Notes: a model not told the origin generated them from the letters alone. Shown: positions 53,201-64,000, counted from the first letter of the stretch. The stretch is DNA of 64,000 nucleotides from Escherichia coli (GCF_044647545.1 NZ_CP172818.1); one strand, 5' to 3'. Made by a program: numbers and translations.

Positions 53201-54514
53201 CTGGTGCACTACACGCGGACACAATATGCAGAGCCGCTGGTCGAAAGTCGCTATCTTTACGACCCGCTGGGCCGCAGGGTGGCAAAACGGGTGTGGCGGC
53301 GTGAACGGGACCTGACGGGCTGGATGTCGCTGTCACGGAAACCGGAAGTGACCTGGTACGGCTGGGACGGCGACCGCCTGACCACGATACAGAACGACAG
53401 AACCCGCATCCAGACGGTTTATCAGCCGGGGAGCTTCACACCACTCATCAGGGTCGAAACCGCCACCGGTGAGCAGGCGAAAACGCAGCGCCGCAGCCTG
53501 GCGGATGCGCTTCAGCAGTCCGGCGGCGAAGACGGTGGCAGTGTGGTGTTCCCGCCGGTGCTGGTGCAGATGCTCGACCGGCTGGAAAGTGAAATCCTTA
53601 CTGACCGGGTGAGTGAGGAAAGCCGCCGCTGGCTGGCATCGTGCGGCCTGACGGTGGCGCAGATGCAAAACCAGATGGACCCGGTGTACACGCCGGCGAG
53701 AAAAATCCACCTGTACCACTGCGACCATCGCGGCCTGCCGCTGGCGCTTGTCAGCACGGAAGGGGCAACAGAATGGTGCGCAGAATACGATGAGTGGGGC
53801 AACCTGCTGAATGAAGAGAACCCGCACCAGCTGCAACAGCTTATCCGCCTGCCGGGTCAGCAGTATGATGAGGAGTCAGGCCTGTATTACAACCGCCACC
53901 GCTATTATGACCCGCTGCAGGGGCGGTATATCACTCAGGATCCGATTGGGCTGAAGGGGGGATGGAACCTGTATGGATATCAATTGAATCCGATATCAGA
54001 CATCGACCCCCTGGGTTTATCTATGTGGGAGGATGCAAAATCGGGGGCATGTACTAATGGTCTTTGCGGCACACTATCCGCTATGATAGGTCCAGATAAG
54101 TTTGATTCTATAGATAGCACCGCATATGACGCCTTAAATAAAATAAATAGCCAATCTATTTGCGAAGATAAAGAGTTCGCTGGTTTAATATGTAAGGATA
54201 ATAGTGGCAGATATTTCTCAACAGCACCTAACCGAGGGGAAAGAAAAGGATCATATCCATTCAATAGCCCTTGCCCTAATGGTACTGAGAAAGTATCAGC
54301 TTATCATACTCATGGTGCAGATAGTCATGGAGAATATTGGGACGAAATATTTTCAGGCAAAGATGAGAAAATAGTTAAAAGTAAAGATAACAATATCAAG
54401 TCATTTTATTTGGGCACGCCCAGTGGTAATTTTAAAGCAATAGATAACCACGGGAAGGAAATAACAAACGGAAAAGGATTACCTAATGTCTGCAGAGTTC
54501 ATGGTAATATGTAA
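50279..54514 (+). pseudogene. rhsB: Rhs core protein RhsB with C-terminal toxin tip; interrupted by an in-frame TGA at 51425-51427, frame resumes downstream (ORF track segments 50279..51427 and 51506..54514)
   Basis: N-terminus MSGKPAARQGDMTQYGGSIVQGSAGVRIGAPTGVACSVCPGG; YD-repeat core; core-tip boundary motif DPIGLKGGW near 53940; both segments in the same frame, total 1412 codons as for intact RhsB. The break could be a real disruption or sequence error. Confidence 0.8.
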
Positions 54515-54869
54515 AAAAATATTTTTTAGGAACTGTGTCATTGTATCTTTGTTTGTTTTTACATACAACACATGGGCGCAGTGTAATAATAATATTAAAA
54601 TAATGCGCAAGTATGAAAGTGAGGGTAAATATACCGTTAGAAATTTGGTTAAAAATAAAGCTATAGCATTGGAATTAGCTGAGATATATGTTAAGAATCG
54701 TTATGGGCAGGATGCCGCAGAAGAAGAAAAACCATATAAAATCACTGAGTTAACAACAAGTTGGGTTGTTGAAGGCACCATTCACTCAGACCAAATTGCT
54801 GGTGGGGTTTTTATTATAGAAATAGGCAAAAATGATGGGGTAATTCTGAATTTTGGCCACGGAAAATAA
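54486..54869 (+). CDS. yhhH: Probable Rhs immunity protein YhhH, overlapping the 3-prime end of rhsB
   Basis: ORF track 127 aa; start lies 29 nt inside the rhsB tip, the usual toxin-immunity arrangement; AT-rich like the tip. Confidence 0.75.
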
Positions 54870-54958
54870 GTATGTAAGGATAATCAAACATCGTGTGCGC
54901 TGATGGCAGAGTAGGTGGAGGACTCCAGACAGTCAAACGATAAAAAAAGATAGCCTTT

Positions 54959-55357
54959 ATGGAGGCTCCTGCAATGTCAAATACATACCAGAAAAGAAAG
55001 GCAAGTAAAGAGTATGGTTTATATAATCAATGTAAGAAACTAAATGATGATGAATTATTTCGCTTACTTGATGATCACAATTCCTTGAAAAGGATTTCAT
55101 CTGCCAGAGTATTACAGTTAAGAGGTGGGCAAGACGCTGTTAGATTGGTAATTGAGTTCTGCTCTGATAAAAATTATATCCGTAGAGATATCGGAGCATT
55201 TATACTCGGGCAAATAAAAATTTGCAAAAAATGCGAAGATAATGTGTTTAATATTTTGAACAATATGGCATTGAATGATAAGAGCGCTTGCGTTCGAGCT
55301 ACGGCAATCGAGTCAACGGCCAGGGAAAGATCATCAAAAGTACACTTTTTGTACTAA
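54959..55357 (+). CDS. Short HEAT-repeat-like protein, possibly a truncated YibA-like orphan remnant of an Rhs element
   Basis: ORF track 132 aa; AT-rich; real start may be the internal Met at 54974 (MSNTYQKRK). Resemblance to YibA is from memory, not a search. Confidence 0.45.
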   Translation: MEAPAMSNTYQKRKASKEYGLYNQCKKLNDDELFRLLDDHNSLKRISSARVLQLRGGQDAVRLVIEFCSDKNYIRRDIGAFILGQIKICKKCEDNVFNILNNMALNDKSACVRATAIESTARERSSKVHFLY

Positions 55358-55464
55358 ATAATTCGCATTTTATGTTTAAAAATTGAGATATTCCTCATTA
55401 CCTGAAGCTGTTTTTTATTGCTTATACATGATCAAATACTCCTTACATAATTAAGGAGAACAAA

Positions 55465-56601
55465 ATGGTACTTAAAAAATTGATGGAACATATTTCTATT
55501 ATCCCCGATTACAGACAAGCCTGGAAAGTGGAACATAAATTATCGGACATTCTACTGTTGACTATTTGTGCCGTTATTTCTGGTGCAGAAGGCTGGGAAG
55601 ATATAGAGGATTTTGGGGAAACACATCTCGATTTTTTGAAGCAATATGGTGATTTTGAAAATGGTATTCCTGTTCACGATACCATTGCCAGAGTTGTATC
55701 CTGTATCAGTCCTGCAAAATTTCACGAGTGCTTTATTAACTGGATGCGTGACTGCCATTCTTCAGATGATAAAGGCGTCATTGCAATTGATGGAAAAACG
55801 CTCCGGCACTCTTATGACAAGAGTCGCCGCAGGGGAGCGATTCATGTCATTAGTGCGTTCTCAACAATGCACAGTCTGGTCATCGGACAGATCAAGACAG
55901 ATGAGAAATCCAATGAGATTACAGCTATCCCAGAACTTCTTAACATGCTGGATATTAAAGGAAAAATCATCACAACTGATGCGATGGGTTGCCAGAAAGA
56001 TATTGCAGAGAAGATACAAAAACAGGGAGGTGATTATTTATTCGCTGTAAAAGGAAATCAGGGGCGGCTAAATAAAGCCTTTGAGGAAAAATTTCCACTG
56101 AAAGAATTAAATAATCCAGAGCATGACAGTTACGCAATGAGTGAAAAGAGTCACGGCAGAGAAGAAATCCGTCTTCACATTGTTTGCGATGTCCCTGATG
56201 AACTTATTGATTTCACGTTTGAATGGAAAGGTCTGAAGAAATTATGCGTGGCAGTCTCCTTTCGGTCAATAATAGCAGAACAAAAGAAAGAGCCAGAAAT
56301 GACGGTCAGATATTATATCAGTTCTGCTGATTTAACCGCAGAGAAGTTCGCCACAGCAATCCGAAACCACTGGCACGTGGAGAATAAGCTGCACTGGCGT
56401 CTGGACGTGGTAATGAATGAAGACGACTGCAAAATAAGAAGAGGAAATGCAGCAGAATTATTTTCAGGGATACGGCACATCGCTATTAATATTTTGACGA
56501 ATGATAAGGTATTCAAGGCAGGGTTAAGACGTAAGATGCGAAAAGCAGCCATGGACAGAAACTATCTGGCGTCAGTCCTTGCGGGGAGCGGGCTTTCGTA
56601 A
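55465..56601 (+). CDS. yhhI: H-repeat-associated (ISAs1-family) transposase-like protein YhhI
   Basis: ORF track 378 aa; [51 protein letters not shown] typical of H-rpt ORFs found at the distal end of Rhs elements. Confidence 0.88.
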
Positions 56602-56688
56602 TCTTTCCCTGATACAAAAAAAAAACAAGTTCAAAACTTTATCCGGCAATCAATATATACACACAATATGAAGTCAAGTTTCCCTTCC

Positions 56689-57813
56689 TTACGCCATTGT
56701 CCCAATCGTCTTCCTGAATCGCAGCAGTGCGATGGTGAAAAATGCGCCGCCAATTGCCATCAGCGTCAGGAACTGCGGCCAGACGATTTCGAATCCGGCA
56801 CCACGGTAGAGAATGGCCTGCGCGAGGCTAACAAAGTGTGTCGTCGGCATGGTCAGCATAATGTCCTGCACCATCTGCGGCATACTTTCGCGCGGCGTGG
56901 AGCCACCGGAAAGCATTTGCAGCGGCAGCAGCACCAGAATCACCAGCAGCCCCAGTTGCGGCATCGAACGCGCTATCGTCCCCATAAAAATGCCGATTGA
57001 CGTGGTGGCAAACAGACTCAGCGCCACGCCCAGCATAAACAGCGGGATCGAGCCTTCAATCGGTACGCCCAGCACGCCTTTCACCATCAGTACCAGCGAT
57101 AATCCCGACACCACCAGCACCACCAGCCCCATCGACCAGACCTTCGCCATCATGATCTCAAACGGCGTTATCGGCATCACCAGTAAGTGTTCCACCGTGC
57201 CGTGTTCACGCTCGCGGATCAGCGCCGATCCGGTCAACACAATCGCCAGCATGGTAATGTTGTTGATGATCGCCATCACCCCGCCAAACCACGCGGGATC
57301 GAGGTTCGGGTTAAAGCGCATCCGGGTTTCCAGCGATACCAACGGTTCGCTGTTATCACGGTAGCGCGCGACAAAGCTGTTCACTTCACCGTTGATAATA
57401 TTCTGGATATACCCGTTGCCGGTAAATGCCTGGCTCATGCGCGTGGCATCGACGTTCACCTGAATATCTGGCTGGCGCCCGGCGAGGACATCACGCTGAA
57501 AATTAGGCGGAATATTTATCGCAAAGGTATAACGCCCGGCGTCCAGCCCGGCATCCATCTCATCGGCGGTGATCATCTCCGGTGGCAAAAACCACGGGCG
57601 ATAGAAGCTGTTAACGATCCTGTTCGATAACTGCGATTGATCCATATCGGCAATGGCGATCGGCGCGAGGTTCAACGATCCTGGCGTAACGGTCGCTGAC
57701 GAATACACCGACACCGTAAACGAGAAGACAATCAGCGTCAGCATCGCTTTATCACCGAGCAAACTGCGCAACTCTTTGATACCCAGATTAAAAATATTGC
57801 GTAAATGGCGCAT
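56689..57813 (-). CDS. yhhJ: ABC-2-type transporter permease YhhJ
   Basis: ORF track 56689..57897; start placed at [18 protein letters not shown] preceded by AGGAGGG; tandem ATGATG start overlaps the rbbA stop (ATGA). Confidence 0.88.
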   Translation of the reverse strand: MRHLRNIFNLGIKELRSLLGDKAMLTLIVFSFTVSVYSSATVTPGSLNLAPIAIADMDQSQLSNRIVNSFYRPWFLPPEMITADEMDAGLDAGRYTFAINIPPNFQRDVLAGRQPDIQVNVDATRMSQAFTGNGYIQNIINGEVNSFVARYRDNSEPLVSLETRMRFNPNLDPAWFGGVMAIINNITMLAIVLTGSALIREREHGTVEHLLVMPITPFEIMMAKVWSMGLVVLVVSGLSLVLMVKGVLGVPIEGSIPLFMLGVALSLFATTSIGIFMGTIARSMPQLGLLVILVLLPLQMLSGGSTPRESMPQMVQDIMLTMPTTHFVSLAQAILYRGAGFEIVWPQFLTLMAIGGAFFTIALLRFRKTIGTMA

Positions 57814-60548
57814 CATCCCTCCTGTTTTTTCAGCAGCAGGATGCTTAAGCCCACCACCAGCGGGATGGCTATCAGCAACGGGATAAAAAGTTGCCACAAA
57901 TCAGTCAGATCCAGCGCCTTCGAGAACGTCCCGCGGGCGATAGTCAGAAAATGACTGGTCGGGTAAACCTCGCCGATCCAACGTCCTGGACCTTCCAGCG
58001 AAGCTACCGGATCGATCATCCCGGAAAACTGCGTCGCCGGAATCAACGTGATGATCGCAGTGCCAAAAATAGCGGCAATCTGGCTTTTCATAAAGGTGGA
58101 GATCAGCAGCCCCATTCCGGTGGCAATGATGATATACAGCAGCGCCGCCAGGGTGAGCGTCAGGAAACTGCCTTTATGCGGTACGCCAAACACAAACACC
58201 GACAGGCCGCAGAGCAGGAAAAAGTTCAGCATCCCCAGCGCGATGTATGGCAACTGTTTACCAAGCAAAAATTCACTACGCGTGGTGGGGGTCACGTAAA
58301 GGTTGATAATCGACCCAAGCTCTTTTTCCCGCACCACGCTAAGGGCGCTTAGCATTGACGGGATCATCATCAGCAGAAGCGGGATCACCGCCGGAACAAT
58401 CGCTGGCAGGCTTTTTACGTCCGGGTTATAGCGATAGCGCGTCTCAATGTTCATCAGCCCGCTTTGGCTGGCGGGTGTCGATTGTCGGCTCGCCACATCC
58501 TGAAGCCAACTCTGGTGCATTGCCTGCACGTAACCTTTTACCGTTTCGGCACGACTGGGCATCGCTCCGTCGATCCAGACGCCGAGTTCCACAGGCGTAC
58601 CACGCGCGATATCGCGCCCAAAATTGGGAGGGATCTCAATTGCCACCGTGATATCGCCCGCACGCATCCGACGATCCAGCTCGTCATAACTGGTGAGCGG
58701 CGGCTGTTCGATAAAGTAACGGGAACCGGAGAGATTGAGCGTCCACGCCTGGCTACTGACGGTCTGGTCGCGGTCGAGCACAGCAAAGCGCAGGTTTTCC
58801 ACATCCATACTGATGCCGTAACCCATTATCAGCATCAGGATCACCGTTCCCATCAGCGCCAGCGTCGAACGTACTGGATCGCGTCGCAGTTCCAGCGCTT
58901 CGCGGCGGCTGTAGCTAAACAGACGGCGCAGGCTAAATCCCTGACGCGGCGCGTGGGTGGTGTCGTGTACCACGGGCGGCGCTTCGGCTTCGTTGCTCTG
59001 CCCTGCCGCTTCCTGCAAATAGGCGATAAATGCCTCTTCCAGACTGGCGGCTCCGCGTTTCTCAACCAGTTCCTGCGGTGTACCGCTGGCAAGCACTTTT
59101 CCGGCGTGCATCAGTGAGATGCGGTCGCAACGTTCCGCTTCGTTCATAAAGTGGGTGGAGATGAAGATAGTCACTTTGTCCTGGCGCGAGAGATCGACCA
59201 TCAACTGCCAGAACATATCCCTCGCCACCGGATCGACACCAGAAGTAGGCTCATCGAGGATTAACATCTCCGGGCGATGAATCACCGCCACCGCCAGCGA
59301 AAGCCGCTGGCGAATGCCGAGCGGCAATGACTCCGGCAGAACATCTTCAACGTCGTTGAGCTTAAAACGCTCGCTCATTTCAGCCACTCGCGCGGGAATT
59401 TCCGCTTCCGGGATATGAAACAGACGAGCATGTAACTCCAGGTTTTGCCGCACGGTGAGTTCGTTATAGAGCGAAAACGCCTGCGACATATAGCCCACCC
59501 GACGGCGAGTATCGATATCTTTTGGATCAACCGGTTGCCCGAACAGCCACGCCTCACCTTCGCTGGCGGGCAGCAATCCGGTAAGCATTTTCATGGTGGT
59601 GGATTTACCGCAGCCGTTCGAACCAAGAAAACCAAAAATCTCCCCGCGTGGAATGCGGAAATTGACGTGATCAACGGCAACGAAGGAACCAAAACGCATG
59701 GTCAGATCGCGCGCTTCGATGGCAATCTCTGCGTTTTCAGGTTGATATGGTGGGATCACTACCGCCTGATGCGCCTGGCGTTGCGCTTGCGGTAACAGAT
59801 TTATAAATGCTTCTTCCAGCGTGGCGCTTTGCGTTTGCTGCCGCAGCTCTTCGGCGCTGCCAGTTGCCAGCACTTCTCCTGCATTCATCGCTACCAGCCA
59901 GTCGAAGCGTTCCGCCTCTTCCATATAGGCGGTGGCAACCAGCACGCTCATATTGCTCTGCCGCTGGCGAATACTGTCGATCAGATCCCAGAACTGGGCG
60001 CGGGAGAGCGGGTCAACCCCCGTTGTTGGCTCATCAAGAATCAACAGTTCCGGGTCGTGAATTAACGCACAGCACAGCCCAAGTTTTTGCTTCATCCCGC
60101 CGGAGAGTTTCCCTGCCGGGCGATCGCGAAACGGTGCTAACCCGGTGCTGGTCAGCAGCTCATTGATTCGCACTTCCCGCTCCGCTTTGTCGTGACCGAA
60201 CAGGCGAGCGAAAAAATCGACGTTTTCATACACCGACAAGGTGTGGTAGAGATTTTTGCCCAGCCCCTGCGGCATCCAGGCGATGCGCGGGCAGACGTCG
60301 CGGCGATGCTTCGGGTCGCGCATATCGCCGCCCAGCACGATCACATTGCCCTGCTCAATGACGCGGGCACCGGAAATCAATGACAATAAACTCGACTTCC
60401 CGACGCCATCCGGACCAATCAGCCCAACCATGCAGCGGGCCGGAATATCGAGAGTGATATTGTTCAGCGCAACGGTTTTTCCATAATGCTGGCTCACGCC
60501 CGCCAGTTGCGCGACAGGCGGGACGGGAACCAGTTCCAGATGCGTCAT
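57813..60548 (-). CDS. rbbA: Ribosome-associated ATPase RbbA (fused tandem ABC ATPase plus permease domain)
   Basis: ORF track 911 aa; two Walker A motifs GPDGVGKSS and GSNGCGKST; C-terminal ABC-2 membrane domain. Confidence 0.92.
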
Positions 60549-61612
60549 TGCGGCAACCTCACCGCCAGGTCTTCAGGCCACGGAAGTTCTTCATTCACCC
60601 GCACCCACGCTACGCCCGGCAAACCGGTTTTGACATATTCCAGATGCTGCTGGAGTAATTCCGGTGGGATACGCGCTTTGACACGGAACATCAGTTTCAG
60701 CCGTTCATCGCTGGTTTCGACGGTTTTTGGCGTGAACTGGGCGACGCTGGCGACAAAACTGATGGTCGCCGGAATACGCAGATCTGGCGCGGCATCGAGG
60801 ATCAGCCGGGCTTCACCGCCCAGTTTCAGCGTGCCCGCCTGTTCGGTTGGCAGGAAGAAGGTCATATAGACGTCGCTGAGATCGACCATATTCAGTACCC
60901 GACCACCTGCCGCCAGCACTTCGCCTGGCTCGGCAACCCGATACTGCACGCGTCCGTCACGCGGGGCTTTCAGTTCGCTGTCATCGATATCTGCGGCAAT
61001 GCGCCGTTCAGTGGCTTGCGCGGCTTCGACGCGAGTTTGCGCCTGAATGATATTGGTGCGTGCCGCCTCTATAGCGGCTTTAGAAGCAGAAACCTGGGCT
61101 TTTGCTGATTCCAGCGCAGCTCGGGCGCTCTCAGCGGCGGCGCGGTCGTCATCCAGCTGTTGCGCAGAAATTGCCCCCCGTTGGGCCAGTGAGCGGGAAC
61201 GCGTATGACGTTTTGCTACGGAGTCCAGTTCTGCCTGGCGTTGATTAACCAGCGACTGTGCGGCACGAGTTTCGCTTTGGCGTTGCTCCAGCAAAGCCTG
61301 CGCGGCGGCAACGGCACTTTGTGCTTCTTTGATTTGCGCGATGGCTTCCATTCGCTGTTCCTGCAACACGCGAGTATCCATCTTCGCCAGCACTTCACCT
61401 TCTCGAACAAACTGGCCTTCTTTCACCAGAATGGTGTCGATACGCCCGGCAATTTTGCTGGCGATATCCACTTCCGTCGCTTCAATGCGCCCATTACTGA
61501 CAGCAAAGCCTTCCGGCACACCTGCCGGGCGCAACAGCCACCACGCCACGATAGCGGCCACCGCCAGTAACCCGACAACCCACCACGCCAGATGGCGCTT
61601 ACTCTTATCCAT
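60545..61612 (-). CDS. yhiI: HlyD-family membrane fusion protein YhiI
   Basis: ORF track 355 aa; N-terminal TM anchor, long Ala/Gln-rich coiled coil, C-terminal beta domain; 4-nt overlap with rbbA. Confidence 0.9.
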
Positions 61613-61977
61613 AATCGACCCGCCATAATCCCTGTAAGCAAACGACGCGTGTTACAACTGCCGCCGAACGACGTTCAGCGGATTCTTCCATCCGGGATAA
61701 GAAGGAAACGGCAAATACGACCAGCGCGCAGAGCATTGAGCGCCAACGTGGAAGGCTTAGTGAAAACGGGTAGTAATGTTGTCATCATCAGCATTCCTGG
61801 CCGTAAATGAAACACGCATACTCATAAGTGTGATCTATAAAACTGGCTGACAAAACGGTATCCATCCTGTTGGATAGCGTTTCACGCCTGTTCAGTTGCA
61901 GGAACAGAGCATTCCTTATTACGTTTTATCAACAGTCTCAACCAGATAGTAACATTAATATTCATGTTGTCTATGGT

Positions 61978-63600
61978 TCAGAGCTGTAACATTGTGCGCC
62001 TTCTAATCAAAGGCATAAGTCCATTTTTGTTTTTTTCATGCTGGTAAGACTTCCAGGGAGTGGTTATCTCAGGCCCCGCACCAGGGTTAATTTGGCAATT
62101 ATGCATGCTGAACATTCTTCCAGCATGTTTACTGTCACGGGCGTTAAGACCTAAAACTGTCCCCGTTTCACCTATGCGTTCTCTCCCACCATTTCCGTTA
62201 TGTGCAACAACTTGATTTATACCTAACATTTGTGAGCATGCTAATAGTGCTTCAAGTTTAGGTCTGTAATCTGTCGAAACAGAAAAATAACGATTAAAGG
62301 ATCGACAAGAGATAGCCCGGCTAGTTTTAAACTTTTTACCATTAATTATAGTATGATGCTTTTTATTAATAATTGCCGCTAATTCGACCGGATCGAGAGC
62401 ATTGGTCATTTCATCAATAGAGACTGTTATCGGTCCTATAATGTAACGTTTTCGCTGATCATCAAAAGTTATCCCATGATGATTTGCCATTATTTTGTAT
62501 TTGGGGTCATAGAAACATACAGGATAATCTTTTATCCCGTCGTAGGTATCCTCATCAAGTGGTTTCATACGCGTGAAGTTCTGCATATAGTTACCATTGC
62601 AATTCGTTTCATGATTACCAGCTAATACATGAAAATTTTCATTGATACTCATTATGCGTTTTAACAAATCGATGATAAATTGATCGCCACAGATATTACT
62701 AAATCGATCGCCGGTTTGGTCTCCCAGAAACGTACATGGCGTCACTGCGCCTTTATTAATAACTAAATATGGCTGAATACTTTCTAAAACAACATCTCTT
62801 CTGTTCAGAATACTGATTATTGTATTAACATTAATGTCTAGTTCCTCATTAATGTTTTCCCTTAATAAAACATTGAGAACTTCATCTTCTATATTAAGCA
62901 ACTGGCTAAGAAAATTTACTCCTTCAGCCATAATTCCCAAATGTCCCGTTGCGAAAAGCGCGTACAAAACTGCACCGACTGAGCCATCGGTATCACCAAA
63001 ATAGGTTGGTCTGGTACTTGTGGGATCAACGGGTGAACAATTGGAGAAATAGATTCTGTCAGCGAACTGGGGTTTTATAATTGTTTCGAATTTAATATCA
63101 GATACATTATATTGCGATATTTTCCAGTCCCAGATGGGTTTGTACGACTCAGTAACTGCAACATCATTAGCATTATCATTTACTGTCATATTATTAAGTA
63201 AATAAACAATGCTGCACCAATTAATATCGGTATCATCAAGAGGGCAACCGTAATTTTTACTATTAATTGTCACAATAAACTGATAACTATTATTCCTACG
63301 TAGAATATGGGCACGCATGCCCGATAGCATACTATATTTTTCTGAATGATTCGTTTCTATGGTAAATGAAATTTTGTCATCTTGAAAAGATTGTTGGAAA
63401 CGTTCTATTTGCCAATCATCAATTTTTTCCACAACTTCACCGAGCATTGTCCTGGCAATACTTGATATATCATCACCTATACCATTTGCAATATACCCAA
63501 ACAGTTCTTTAGTGAAGTTAGTAACATGCTCTTGCACCATATCATTTGTTGCGATAGTCGTTATACTGTCGTTAGTGCCTGCCACAGTTCCAAGTTTCAT
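61978..63600 (-). CDS. yhiJ: Uncharacterised protein YhiJ (DUF4049 family)
   Basis: ORF track 540 aa; MKLGTVAGTNDSITTIATNDMVQEHV; AT-rich codon usage suggests horizontal origin. Confidence 0.85.
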   Translation of the reverse strand: MKLGTVAGTNDSITTIATNDMVQEHVTNFTKELFGYIANGIGDDISSIARTMLGEVVEKIDDWQIERFQQSFQDDKISFTIETNHSEKYSMLSGMRAHILRRNNSYQFIVTINSKNYGCPLDDTDINWCSIVYLLNNMTVNDNANDVAVTESYKPIWDWKISQYNVSDIKFETIIKPQFADRIYFSNCSPVDPTSTRPTYFGDTDGSVGAVLYALFATGHLGIMAEGVNFLSQLLNIEDEVLNVLLRENINEELDINVNTIISILNRRDVVLESIQPYLVINKGAVTPCTFLGDQTGDRFSNICGDQFIIDLLKRIMSINENFHVLAGNHETNCNGNYMQNFTRMKPLDEDTYDGIKDYPVCFYDPKYKIMANHHGITFDDQRKRYIIGPITVSIDEMTNALDPVELAAIINKKHHTIINGKKFKTSRAISCRSFNRYFSVSTDYRPKLEALLACSQMLGINQVVAHNGNGGRERIGETGTVLGLNARDSKHAGRMFSMHNCQINPGAGPEITTPWKSYQHEKNKNGLMPLIRRRTMLQL

Positions 63601-63872
63601 CTTTTACCTCATATAATTCACCGCAAGGAATACATAGTTATCATTTAATCTTATGACATACACCTCATGTTCGACGGGAAAATAATTATATTTTGCACAA
63701 ATCATTCAGCCTTAAAGCATAATATGAAATTTCTTATCTCATAGTAGAGAAAGTCCCTAAAGATTGTAGAGGCGTCATCAGTACATGCCTCTACAATCGA
63801 TTAAGAAAAACTATGAAATACTGGCAGGATTAAAAAGACATACCACAGCACTCATGGAGTTTTAATGTGGTT

Positions 63873-64000
63873 GAAAACAACTAAGCCCTGGGACACCTTT
63901 TTTATCACCACGTTCGTTAGGTGCTATCTTCCAGGAATTTAGCCCCATGATATAATTATCAATTTTTTGATGCTGATCTACCCCTAATCCATAATGGCCA
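63873..64000 (-). CDS. 3-prime end of an unidentified minus-strand CDS that continues beyond the window end
   Basis: Open frame on the minus strand from the window edge to TAA at 63873-63875, C-terminus ...NSWKIAPNERGDKKGVPGLSCFQPH; by K-12 synteny this could be the yhiJ paralog yhiL, unverified. Confidence 0.4.

Follow-up and report, generated by a model that had tools for sequence, protein, structure and literature searches.

What does the yhiI–rbbA–yhhJ operon of Escherichia coli encode: a machine that moves a molecule across the cell envelope or, as the name of its central product suggests, a factor that serves the ribosome? The operon lies on the minus strand of a 64,000-nucleotide stretch of E. 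coli DNA (GCF_044647545.1 NZ_CP172818.1), referred to here as the window, in which three co-directional open reading frames (ORFs) together span positions 56689–61612 exactly. An earlier reading of the sequence, the original prediction, had placed three tightly coupled genes there, and the ORFs bear this out. With a probability of about 0.7, the operon encodes an ATP-binding cassette (ABC) exporter of the ABC-2 type that acts in the envelope together with a periplasmic adaptor, and not a dedicated ribosome factor; within this reading we infer the complex, the direction of transport and the use of TolC.

Much of the outline is already known. The genes, their operon, a putative assignment to a membrane fusion protein (MFP) and an ABC exporter, and the gap concerning the substrate are on record in RefSeq, in EcoCyc-style product names and in several papers, and yhiI–rbbA–yhhJ is named as an operon in the literature. 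The statement of the original prediction that no substrate is established holds, and is itself part of that record. What is added here is the relationship of RbbA to a YbhF–YbhS fusion, a degenerate ATP site found throughout the family, an RLS motif in the adaptor, linkage to an outer-membrane factor in distant homologs, the failure of RbbA to group with the ABC-F proteins, and a conserved leader. These additions sharpen the annotation of the operon and leave its category unchanged.

All three genes are real and constrained, and are not chance ORFs, since their products give strong Pfam and NCBIfam matches, their dN/dS values relative to K-12 are low (0.043 for yhiI, 0.028 for rbbA and 0.013 for yhhJ) and, as expected of core genes, 5413 of the 5426 complete E. 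coli genomes contain the operon. RbbA combines two ABC_tran domains with an ABC2_membrane_3 domain (amino acids 569–904, 137.5 bits against a cut-off of 31.6) and matches the NCBIfam equivalog NF033858 over model positions 1–908 of 909 (1595.8 bits, cut-off 1050) as well as TIGR01188, drrA (391.6 bits, cut-off 312.45). YhhJ has a membrane domain of the same Pfam family (119.4 bits, cut-off 31.6) that is 28% identical to that of RbbA. In the hydropathy profiles the two membrane domains are alike, each having six hydrophobic helices; transmembrane (TM) helices TM1 and TM2 are separated by about 140 residues that form a periplasmic domain.

The AlphaFold2 (AF2) model of YhhJ, with a predicted local distance difference test (pLDDT) score of 81, resembles ABCH-9C most closely in a Foldseek comparison, over both the transmembrane domain (TMD) and the outer domain between TM1 and TM2, followed by NosY, ABCA1/3/4/7, ABCG and KpsM. 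MacB is absent from the matches listed (the best 50, with E-values up to about 0.01). The Pfam scan likewise gives no FtsX or MacB_PCD match, and six TM helices are predicted in place of the four of the MacB/FtsX (type VII) fold. Because the YhhJ model matches ABCH-9C, NosY, ABCA, ABCG and KpsM and, among the matches listed, no MacB-type protein, RbbA and YhhJ together are assigned to the ABC-2 or type V exporter class, in which the nucleotide-binding domain (NBD) is N-terminal to the TMD, and are not MacB-like. In the copy of the PDB that was searched, none of the solved structures closely matched YhiI, RbbA or YhhJ.

The two NBDs of RbbA each carry a Walker A motif and a Walker B glutamate, as expected of a catalytically competent ATPase, but they differ in their remaining motifs. 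NBD1 lacks the H-loop histidine and NBD2 has a degenerate signature, an asymmetry shared by YbhF and by each of the nine distant homologs examined. Since NBDs pair head-to-tail as a dimer, these motifs would be combined in two composite ATP sites, a consensus site made of Walker A, Walker B and the histidine of NBD2 with LSGGM of NBD1, and a degenerate site made of NBD1, without its histidine, and LPLGI of NBD2. Such asymmetry between a consensus and a degenerate site is typical of heterodimeric ABC exporters. Among family models, those of DrrA, NodI and GldA give the NBDs their highest scores; among structures, they are closest to ABCA3/4/1 and to ABCG23-like Tribolium entries (the same entries were later titled ABCH-9C), and not to ABC-F proteins.

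The original prediction noted that RbbA is usually described as ribosome-associated, and the RefSeq product name indeed retains 'ribosome-associated ATPase', a label with which the sequence tests are at odds. From in vitro work, RbbA is said to bind the E site, a finding reported only for a truncated protein, and to stimulate poly-Phe synthesis; with truncated RbbA, yields of difficult peptides in vitro rise by a modest 1.3- to 2.1-fold (PMC12096078). In that study a fragment lacking the membrane domain was used because the full-length protein is unstable, and the stimulation depends on concentration, turning to inhibition above about 2 µM for RbbA and ABC-F proteins alike (PMC12096078). The only paper on an in vivo interaction of RbbA was retracted in 2025 because of image concerns (PMC12169533).

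The ABC-F factors EttA, Uup, YbiT and YheS share with RbbA the two tandem ABC ATPase domains and reported in vitro effects on the E-site and translation; unlike RbbA, they have a PtIM linker, as seen in EttA, and no membrane domain. The family for this linker (ABC_tran_Xtn, PF12848) is absent from RbbA at E ≤ 0.001, while EttA, used as the positive control, is matched with 45.8 bits at amino acids 230–305. The linker between the NBDs of RbbA has only about 25 residues. These NBDs score 231 and 144 bits against YbhF, compared with 97 bits against EttA (26% identity). RbbA thus appears to fall outside the ABC-F family on two grounds: it has no linker domain, and its C-terminal ABC-2 membrane domain of about 370 residues makes it unlikely to be soluble.

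These data bear on the proposal that RbbA is mainly a translation factor, an E-site ATPase which releases deacylated tRNA, and that its transporter-like neighbours are incidental or serve as membrane anchors. Even though the in vitro effects summarised in PMC12096078 and the RefSeq name speak for it, we regard the proposal as quite improbable. The six-helix ABC-2 domain of RbbA is conserved under strong purifying selection, with one amino-acid change relative to K-12 over 381 residues; the ABC_tran_Xtn linker is missing and the NBDs are nearer in bits to YbhF than to EttA; the order of adaptor, ATPase/permease and permease is kept in homologs down to 33% identity; and the experiments were made with the fragment described above, while the in vivo report is the retracted one. 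RbbA might instead have both roles, being a membrane ABC exporter whose ATPase domains also touch ribosomes, or from which a soluble proteolytic fragment moonlights. This would reconcile the architecture of a transporter with the effects of a soluble fragment on ribosomes in vitro, but no ribosome-binding feature is found in RbbA by the Pfam scan or in the alignment, the stimulation is reversed above about 2 µM and the supporting in vivo paper is withdrawn, which makes it the least probable of the explanations considered here. That translation at the membrane would thereby be linked directly to export, or to membrane stress which the pump senses, is likewise very improbable. The 'ribosome-associated' label therefore looks poorly founded.

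YhiI, the product of the first gene, is an adaptor of the HlyD/MFP family. It is matched by HlyD_3 (63.7 bits, cut-off 22.2), HlyD_D23 (52.5 bits, cut-off 30), CusB_dom_1 (46.6 bits, cut-off 26.5) and, also above its cut-off, Biotin_lipoyl_2 in Pfam, and by the RND_mfp subfamily TIGR01730 in NCBIfam (118.6 bits, cut-off 94.9). Its layout is that of an anchored adaptor, with an N-terminal TM helix (amino acids 8–26 by hydropathy), a lipoyl domain, an α-hairpin (amino acids 81–210) and a β-barrel; its model has no membrane-proximal domain. The AF2 model of YhiI (pLDDT 88.9), built from a multiple sequence alignment (MSA) of 10 operon-linked adaptors, predicts hairpin helices at residues 81–144 and 150–210 (61–64 residues) flanked by β domains, which at 1.5 Å per residue corresponds to a hairpin of about 95 Å. 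Foldseek against the PDB places EmrA of EmrAB–TolC first (7.5e-23) and MacA next, and the top matches are all adaptors.

The predicted tip loop of the hairpin (amino acids 145–149) is spanned by an RLS motif, R138-x3-L142-x6-S149 (RxxxLxxxxxxS), whose three residues are each at least 90% conserved in alignment A1. In MacA, AcrA and HlyD, experiments have shown that this motif binds the tip of TolC (PMC3391258). EmrA is the best match to YhiI in both structure and sequence; in each of the two, one N-terminal TM helix is combined with a lipoyl domain, a long hairpin and a β-barrel, and a membrane-proximal domain is lacking. EmrA, however, works with a transporter of the major facilitator superfamily and not with an ABC transporter, and the two sequences are only 17–19% identical. 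A second motif, F286...F293-T294-P295...R304, is invariant in all adaptors of the YhiI/YbhG type in alignment A1 (amino acids 286–304 of YhiI, about 60701–60757 in the window). It sits in a loop of the β-barrel domain where the confidence of the model is lower, and may contact the periplasmic domains of the ABC-2 subunits.

The closest known relative of the whole system is YbhG–YbhF–YbhS–YbhR, an E. coli ABC pump regulated by cecR, which is built of the same four modules, encoded in an identical order. In BLASTP against the K-12 ybhGFSR locus, YhiI is 30% identical to YbhG (1e-29), RbbA residues 1–530 are about 40% identical to YbhF in each NBD (2e-69 and 3e-39), RbbA residues 531–911 are 32% identical to YbhS (3e-49) and YhhJ is 24% identical to YbhR (2e-32). 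Because these matches are colinear module by module, RbbA is, by sequence, a fusion of YbhF and YbhS, and the operon a module-for-module paralog of ybhGFSR. The NBD asymmetry and the RLS motif of the adaptor are shared. In YbhGFSR the first permease is a protein separate from the tandem ATPase, whereas RbbA unites both in one polypeptide. Unlike ybhGFSR, the yhiI operon has no adjoining gene for a TetR-type regulator and instead has a leader containing the small ORF yhiY. Drug and cation phenotypes have been reported for YbhFSR, which is treated as an MFP-dependent ABC pump (PMC7190983), whereas none has been reported for yhiI–rbbA–yhhJ. A review (Chem Rev 2021) places YbhFSR in the MacB family; the domain composition seen here does not support this placement. 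YbhF and the more distant fused homologs also have a segment of about 70 residues after NBD1 that is absent in RbbA and its three closest relatives (amino acids 240–275, about 59724–59831), which points to a lineage-specific loss in the RbbA group.

The arrangement extends to distant relatives. A search of 1.84 billion representative proteins (50% representatives) yields about a dozen full-length fused RbbA homologs with 33–58% identity, and the genomic context was looked up for ten of them. A gene for an ABC-2 permease directly follows the fused ATPase gene in all ten loci, and an MFP gene directly precedes it in nine, one of these MFP genes being truncated where its contig ends and identified through its Pfam match; for the tenth locus no DNA was available. 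Junctions in these loci are as tight as in E. coli, from –8 to +29 nt. In two of the ten loci a gene for a TolC-family outer-membrane protein (OEP, PF02321, 146–157 bits) is adjacent. In locus L010 it lies 6 nt after the permease gene in the same orientation, as the fourth gene of the operon, while in locus L009 it lies upstream and is divergent. This conserved synteny is the strongest computational support for an envelope-spanning assembly in the RbbA family.

The other neighbours of the homologous loci share no consistent substrate theme; they include LTXXQ/Metal_resist proteins, a P-type ATPase, a non-ribosomal peptide synthetase, a FadL-like channel, and a DUF924 protein with a serine acetyltransferase. 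In two unrelated loci (L007, 2437–2913, and L012, 178–678) the adaptor gene adjoins a gene for a periplasmic LTXXQ/Metal_resist protein of the CpxP/Spy/ZraP-like kind; a P-type cation ATPase is encoded in L007 as well. The two loci possibly hint at a connection with envelope or metal stress, but they are too small a sample for interpretation.

From these features the following mechanism can be proposed. RbbA would supply both ATPase domains and one six-helix membrane domain and YhhJ the second membrane domain, the two proteins forming a 1:1 pseudo-heterodimeric full transporter of type V (ABCA/ABCG/DrrAB-like). ATP binding and hydrolysis at the consensus site would drive the membrane domains. 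YhiI, anchored by one helix in the inner membrane, would oligomerise over the periplasmic domains of RbbA and YhhJ, and its long hairpin would dock through the RLS tip on an outer-membrane channel, presumably TolC, which is encoded elsewhere. The substrate would then leave through the duct formed by YhiI and TolC. The exporter is probably TolC-dependent; since the E. coli locus has no gene for an outer-membrane channel, the use of TolC, though plausible, is inferred. Since the fold class is rich in exporters of lipids and glycolipids, a lipophilic or membrane-embedded molecule, either of the envelope or a xenobiotic, may be offered as a weak guess for the substrate.

Several points weigh against an export pump of this kind. 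No outer-membrane factor gene is found in the E. coli locus or nearby in eight of the ten homologous loci. No transport phenotype is known, and in a screen for anthocyanin export the overexpression of yhiH–yhhJ had no more than small effects. Truncated RbbA does stimulate in vitro translation, by the modest factor given above, and the AF2 models rest on shallow MSAs of 10–11 sequences. Mentions of a phenotype in the literature are incidental: a single-nucleotide polymorphism for microcin C resistance from a genome-wide association study, mild induction by butanol, induction in vivo in enterohaemorrhagic E. coli, a note on biofilm architecture and a weak FlhDC peak inside yhiJ from systematic evolution of ligands by exponential enrichment. 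Of the original prediction that the three proteins form a tripartite efflux-type system, the MFP and the ABC ATPase-permease stand, strengthened by the paralogy with ybhGFSR, the synteny and the RLS motif, and all computational tests made here are in accord with an efflux-type reading; the third part is not encoded in the E. coli locus.

The same points raise the question of whether an outer-membrane channel takes part at all. RbbA and YhhJ could form an inner-membrane pump for which YhiI serves as a periplasmic collar or chaperone, delivering the substrate to the periplasm or to the inner leaflet of the outer membrane, on the model of the MFP-containing ABC systems of Gram-positive bacteria. 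The scarcity of linked outer-membrane factor genes in E. coli and the homologs, the lack of a membrane-proximal domain in YhiI and the absence of a TolC-dependent phenotype from the literature found would all be accounted for. Such a pump would, however, leave unexplained the conserved canonical TolC-binding motif at the hairpin tip, the length of a hairpin whose nearest structures are adaptors solved in complex with TolC, and the OEP genes in the same operon in L010 and next to it in L009. An unlinked tolC is, moreover, routine for E. coli pumps: AcrAB, MacAB and EmrAB all use it. An inner-membrane pump with no outer-membrane channel is accordingly judged unlikely, and the envelope-spanning exporter is preferred.

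Compared with known systems, this exporter would combine features that are otherwise found apart. MacAB–TolC, the type VII ABC tripartite pump, is similarly powered by an ABC protein and has an MFP that is anchored at its N-terminus and carries an RLS motif at the tip of a long hairpin, but RbbA and YhhJ differ from MacB: their membrane domains belong to ABC2_membrane families, each half has six TM helices and the NBD precedes the TMD in the chain. ABCH-9C (an insect lipid exporter), ABCA1/3/4/7, KpsMT–KpsE and NosDFY are type V exporters with extracytoplasmic domains and a fold like that of YhhJ, but none is known to pair with a hairpin-type MFP and a TolC-family channel, the adaptor of KpsMT being KpsE. 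The substrates of these exporters (lipids, glycolipids) are not transferable to RbbA and YhhJ by homology alone. We know of no solved structure of an ABC-2-type pump that works with a hairpin adaptor, a gap that a structure of YhiI–RbbA–YhhJ or of its paralog YbhGFSR would fill. As a tentative proposal, which we consider rather less probable than even, YhiI–RbbA–YhhJ–TolC would be the first tripartite pump built on a type V (ABCA/ABCG-like) core, extracting a lipophilic molecule of the envelope and switched on through attenuation by yhiY and Rho. Few ABC exporters of E. coli are still orphans; this operon is one of them, and the name RbbA steers readers to translation and not to transport. Because of the 2025 retraction and the sequence evidence for a pump, RbbA should be re-annotated and its substrate sought.

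The positions of the genes and of the elements within and around them are collected in Table 1.

Table 1. Positions of the genes, domains, junctions and leader elements of the yhiI–rbbA–yhhJ locus in the window
Feature	Position	Strand	Description	Basis
yhiI	60545–61612	minus	355 aa; inner-membrane-anchored periplasmic adaptor (membrane fusion protein)	ORF, Pfam/NCBIfam
rbbA (old name yhiH)	57813–60548	minus	911 aa; fused ABC protein, NBD1–NBD2–ABC-2 membrane domain	ORF, Pfam/NCBIfam
yhhJ	56689–57813	minus	374 aa; second ABC-2 membrane subunit	ORF, Pfam
RbbA NBD1	59814–60515	minus	about aa 12–245; Walker A GPDGVGKS, signature LSGGM, Walker B LLILDE; no H-loop His (ATAYM)	Motif scan, family alignment
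RbbA NBD2	59019–59735	minus	about aa 272–510; Walker A GSNGCGKS, Walker B MLILDE, H-loop His (STHFM); degenerate signature LPLGI	Motif scan, family alignment
RbbA ABC-2 membrane domain	57816–58931	minus	about aa 540–911; 6 predicted TM helices	Hydropathy, Pfam
yhiI/rbbA junction	60545–60548	minus	ATGA start/stop overlap	Sequence, RefSeq annotation
rbbA/yhhJ junction, ATGATG	57811–57816	minus	rbbA TGA overlaps two in-frame candidate yhhJ ATGs; AGGAGG just before	Sequence, RefSeq annotation (second ATG)
yhiJ–yhiI intergenic leader	61613–61977	minus	365 nt, holds yhiY	Conservation, published Rho effect
yhiY	61675–61788	minus	37-codon small ORF, 62 nt upstream of yhiI; candidate regulatory upstream ORF	Translation, RefSeq
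Sigma-70-like promoter match	61946–61973	minus	TAGACA-16-TACTAT, extended TG, distal end of leader	Candidate only

Both junctions of the operon are overlaps. At the first, which reads ...gcaATGAcg, the rbbA start codon (60548–60546) and the yhiI stop codon TGA (60547–60545) have 4 nt in common, in agreement with the 4-nt overlap of the original prediction. At the second, which reads GGGATGATG (= cAGGAGGgATGATGcgc = AGGAGGgATGATGcgc) with the rbbA stop codon at 57815–57813, the outcome depends on the start codon of yhhJ. From the first ATG (57816) the overlap is the predicted ATGA of 4 nt, while the start annotated in RefSeq, both in the avian E. coli strain EF7-18-51 and in K-12 MG1655, is the second ATG (57813), which gives a TGATG overlap of 1 nt. 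The distance to the AGGAGG Shine–Dalgarno sequence also favours the second ATG, at 4 nt compared with 1 nt. Whichever ATG is used, rbbA and yhhJ abut with no spacer. Among junctions in bacterial operons no types are more frequent than overlaps of 4 nt or 1 nt, so that the coupling of the three genes is usual for an operon, with nothing special about it.

Because no stop codon interrupts the yhhJ frame in the 84 nt before its start, any frameshift near the 3' end of rbbA, for example in the A6 run, fuses both genes (57813–57897). RbbA–YhhJ fusion proteins of 1285–1286 residues (P0001–P0010) do occur in a few E. coli assemblies. They were considered as Rosetta-stone evidence and dropped, as they arise from frameshifts within roughly the final 80 nt of rbbA. 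Each is found on a single contig (1–4 member sequences) and some lose TM6; they are probably sequencing errors or rare mutants.

Upstream of yhiI, the intergenic leader varies far less among E. coli genomes than does the coding sequence of the operon or its synonymous sites. Its identity to the window reaches 99% or more in 3373 of 5412 genomes (62%), compared with 62 of 5413 (about 1%) for rbbA; in about 20% of genomes only the proximal 160–232 nt are kept. Relative to K-12 the leader has two differences in about 390 positions. A judgement of its conservation from K-12 alone was rejected, since the leader could be a recombination tract (stretches of rbbA also diverge by only 0–0.3%), and the comparison over all genomes was used instead. 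Residue 16 of YhiY is Thr in the window strain and Pro in K-12.

Published work has mapped the translation start of yhiY by ribosome profiling, has reported premature termination dependent on Rho in the leader, with expression of a yhiI 5'-region fusion more than 2-fold higher in rhoR66S, and lists yhiY–yhiI as a candidate attenuator dependent on an upstream ORF, with an RNA 3' end nearby. Rho-dependent attenuation in the yhiY leader probably keeps expression of the operon low, and could be the reason why the operon is quiet in overexpression and knockout screens. Thermodynamic folding of the leader (z-scores –0.59 and –1.73) does not support a structured, riboswitch-like element. The single sigma-70-like promoter match is not above chance, 3.2 matches being expected. 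The conserved yhiY leader is a practical handle, and its removal should unlock expression of the operon.

At the other end of the operon, the spacer 3' of yhhJ (56602–56688) is 77 nt shorter than its K-12 counterpart (L003, 7516–7679). A palindrome in the K-12 spacer (CCGATGCGT...ACGCATCGG), which might serve as a terminator or form a hairpin like those of repetitive extragenic palindromic elements, is absent here, where only a T-run (about 56615–56630) is present. Terminator-like sites are no more frequent than expected by chance (8 compared with 6.3), and an Rfam scan of 56000–62500 gives no match.

Within E. coli, the rbbA gene of the window is 100% identical to that of ST648-type strains. 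Its divergence from K-12 is mosaic, being 0–0.3% at 58189–58488 and 58789–59388 and 2–5% in adjoining 300-nt bins, which suggests recombination tracts within the gene. One flank of the operon contains the rhsB tip, yhhH and yhhI, a transposase of the ISEc1/ISAs1 family (55465–56601, convergent with yhhJ), and the other contains the DUF4049 genes yhiJ and yhiL. The GC content of the operon is 0.51–0.60, whereas that of the DNA on both flanks (54000–56500 and 62000–64000) is 0.32–0.42; the core operon is therefore sandwiched between accessory islands.

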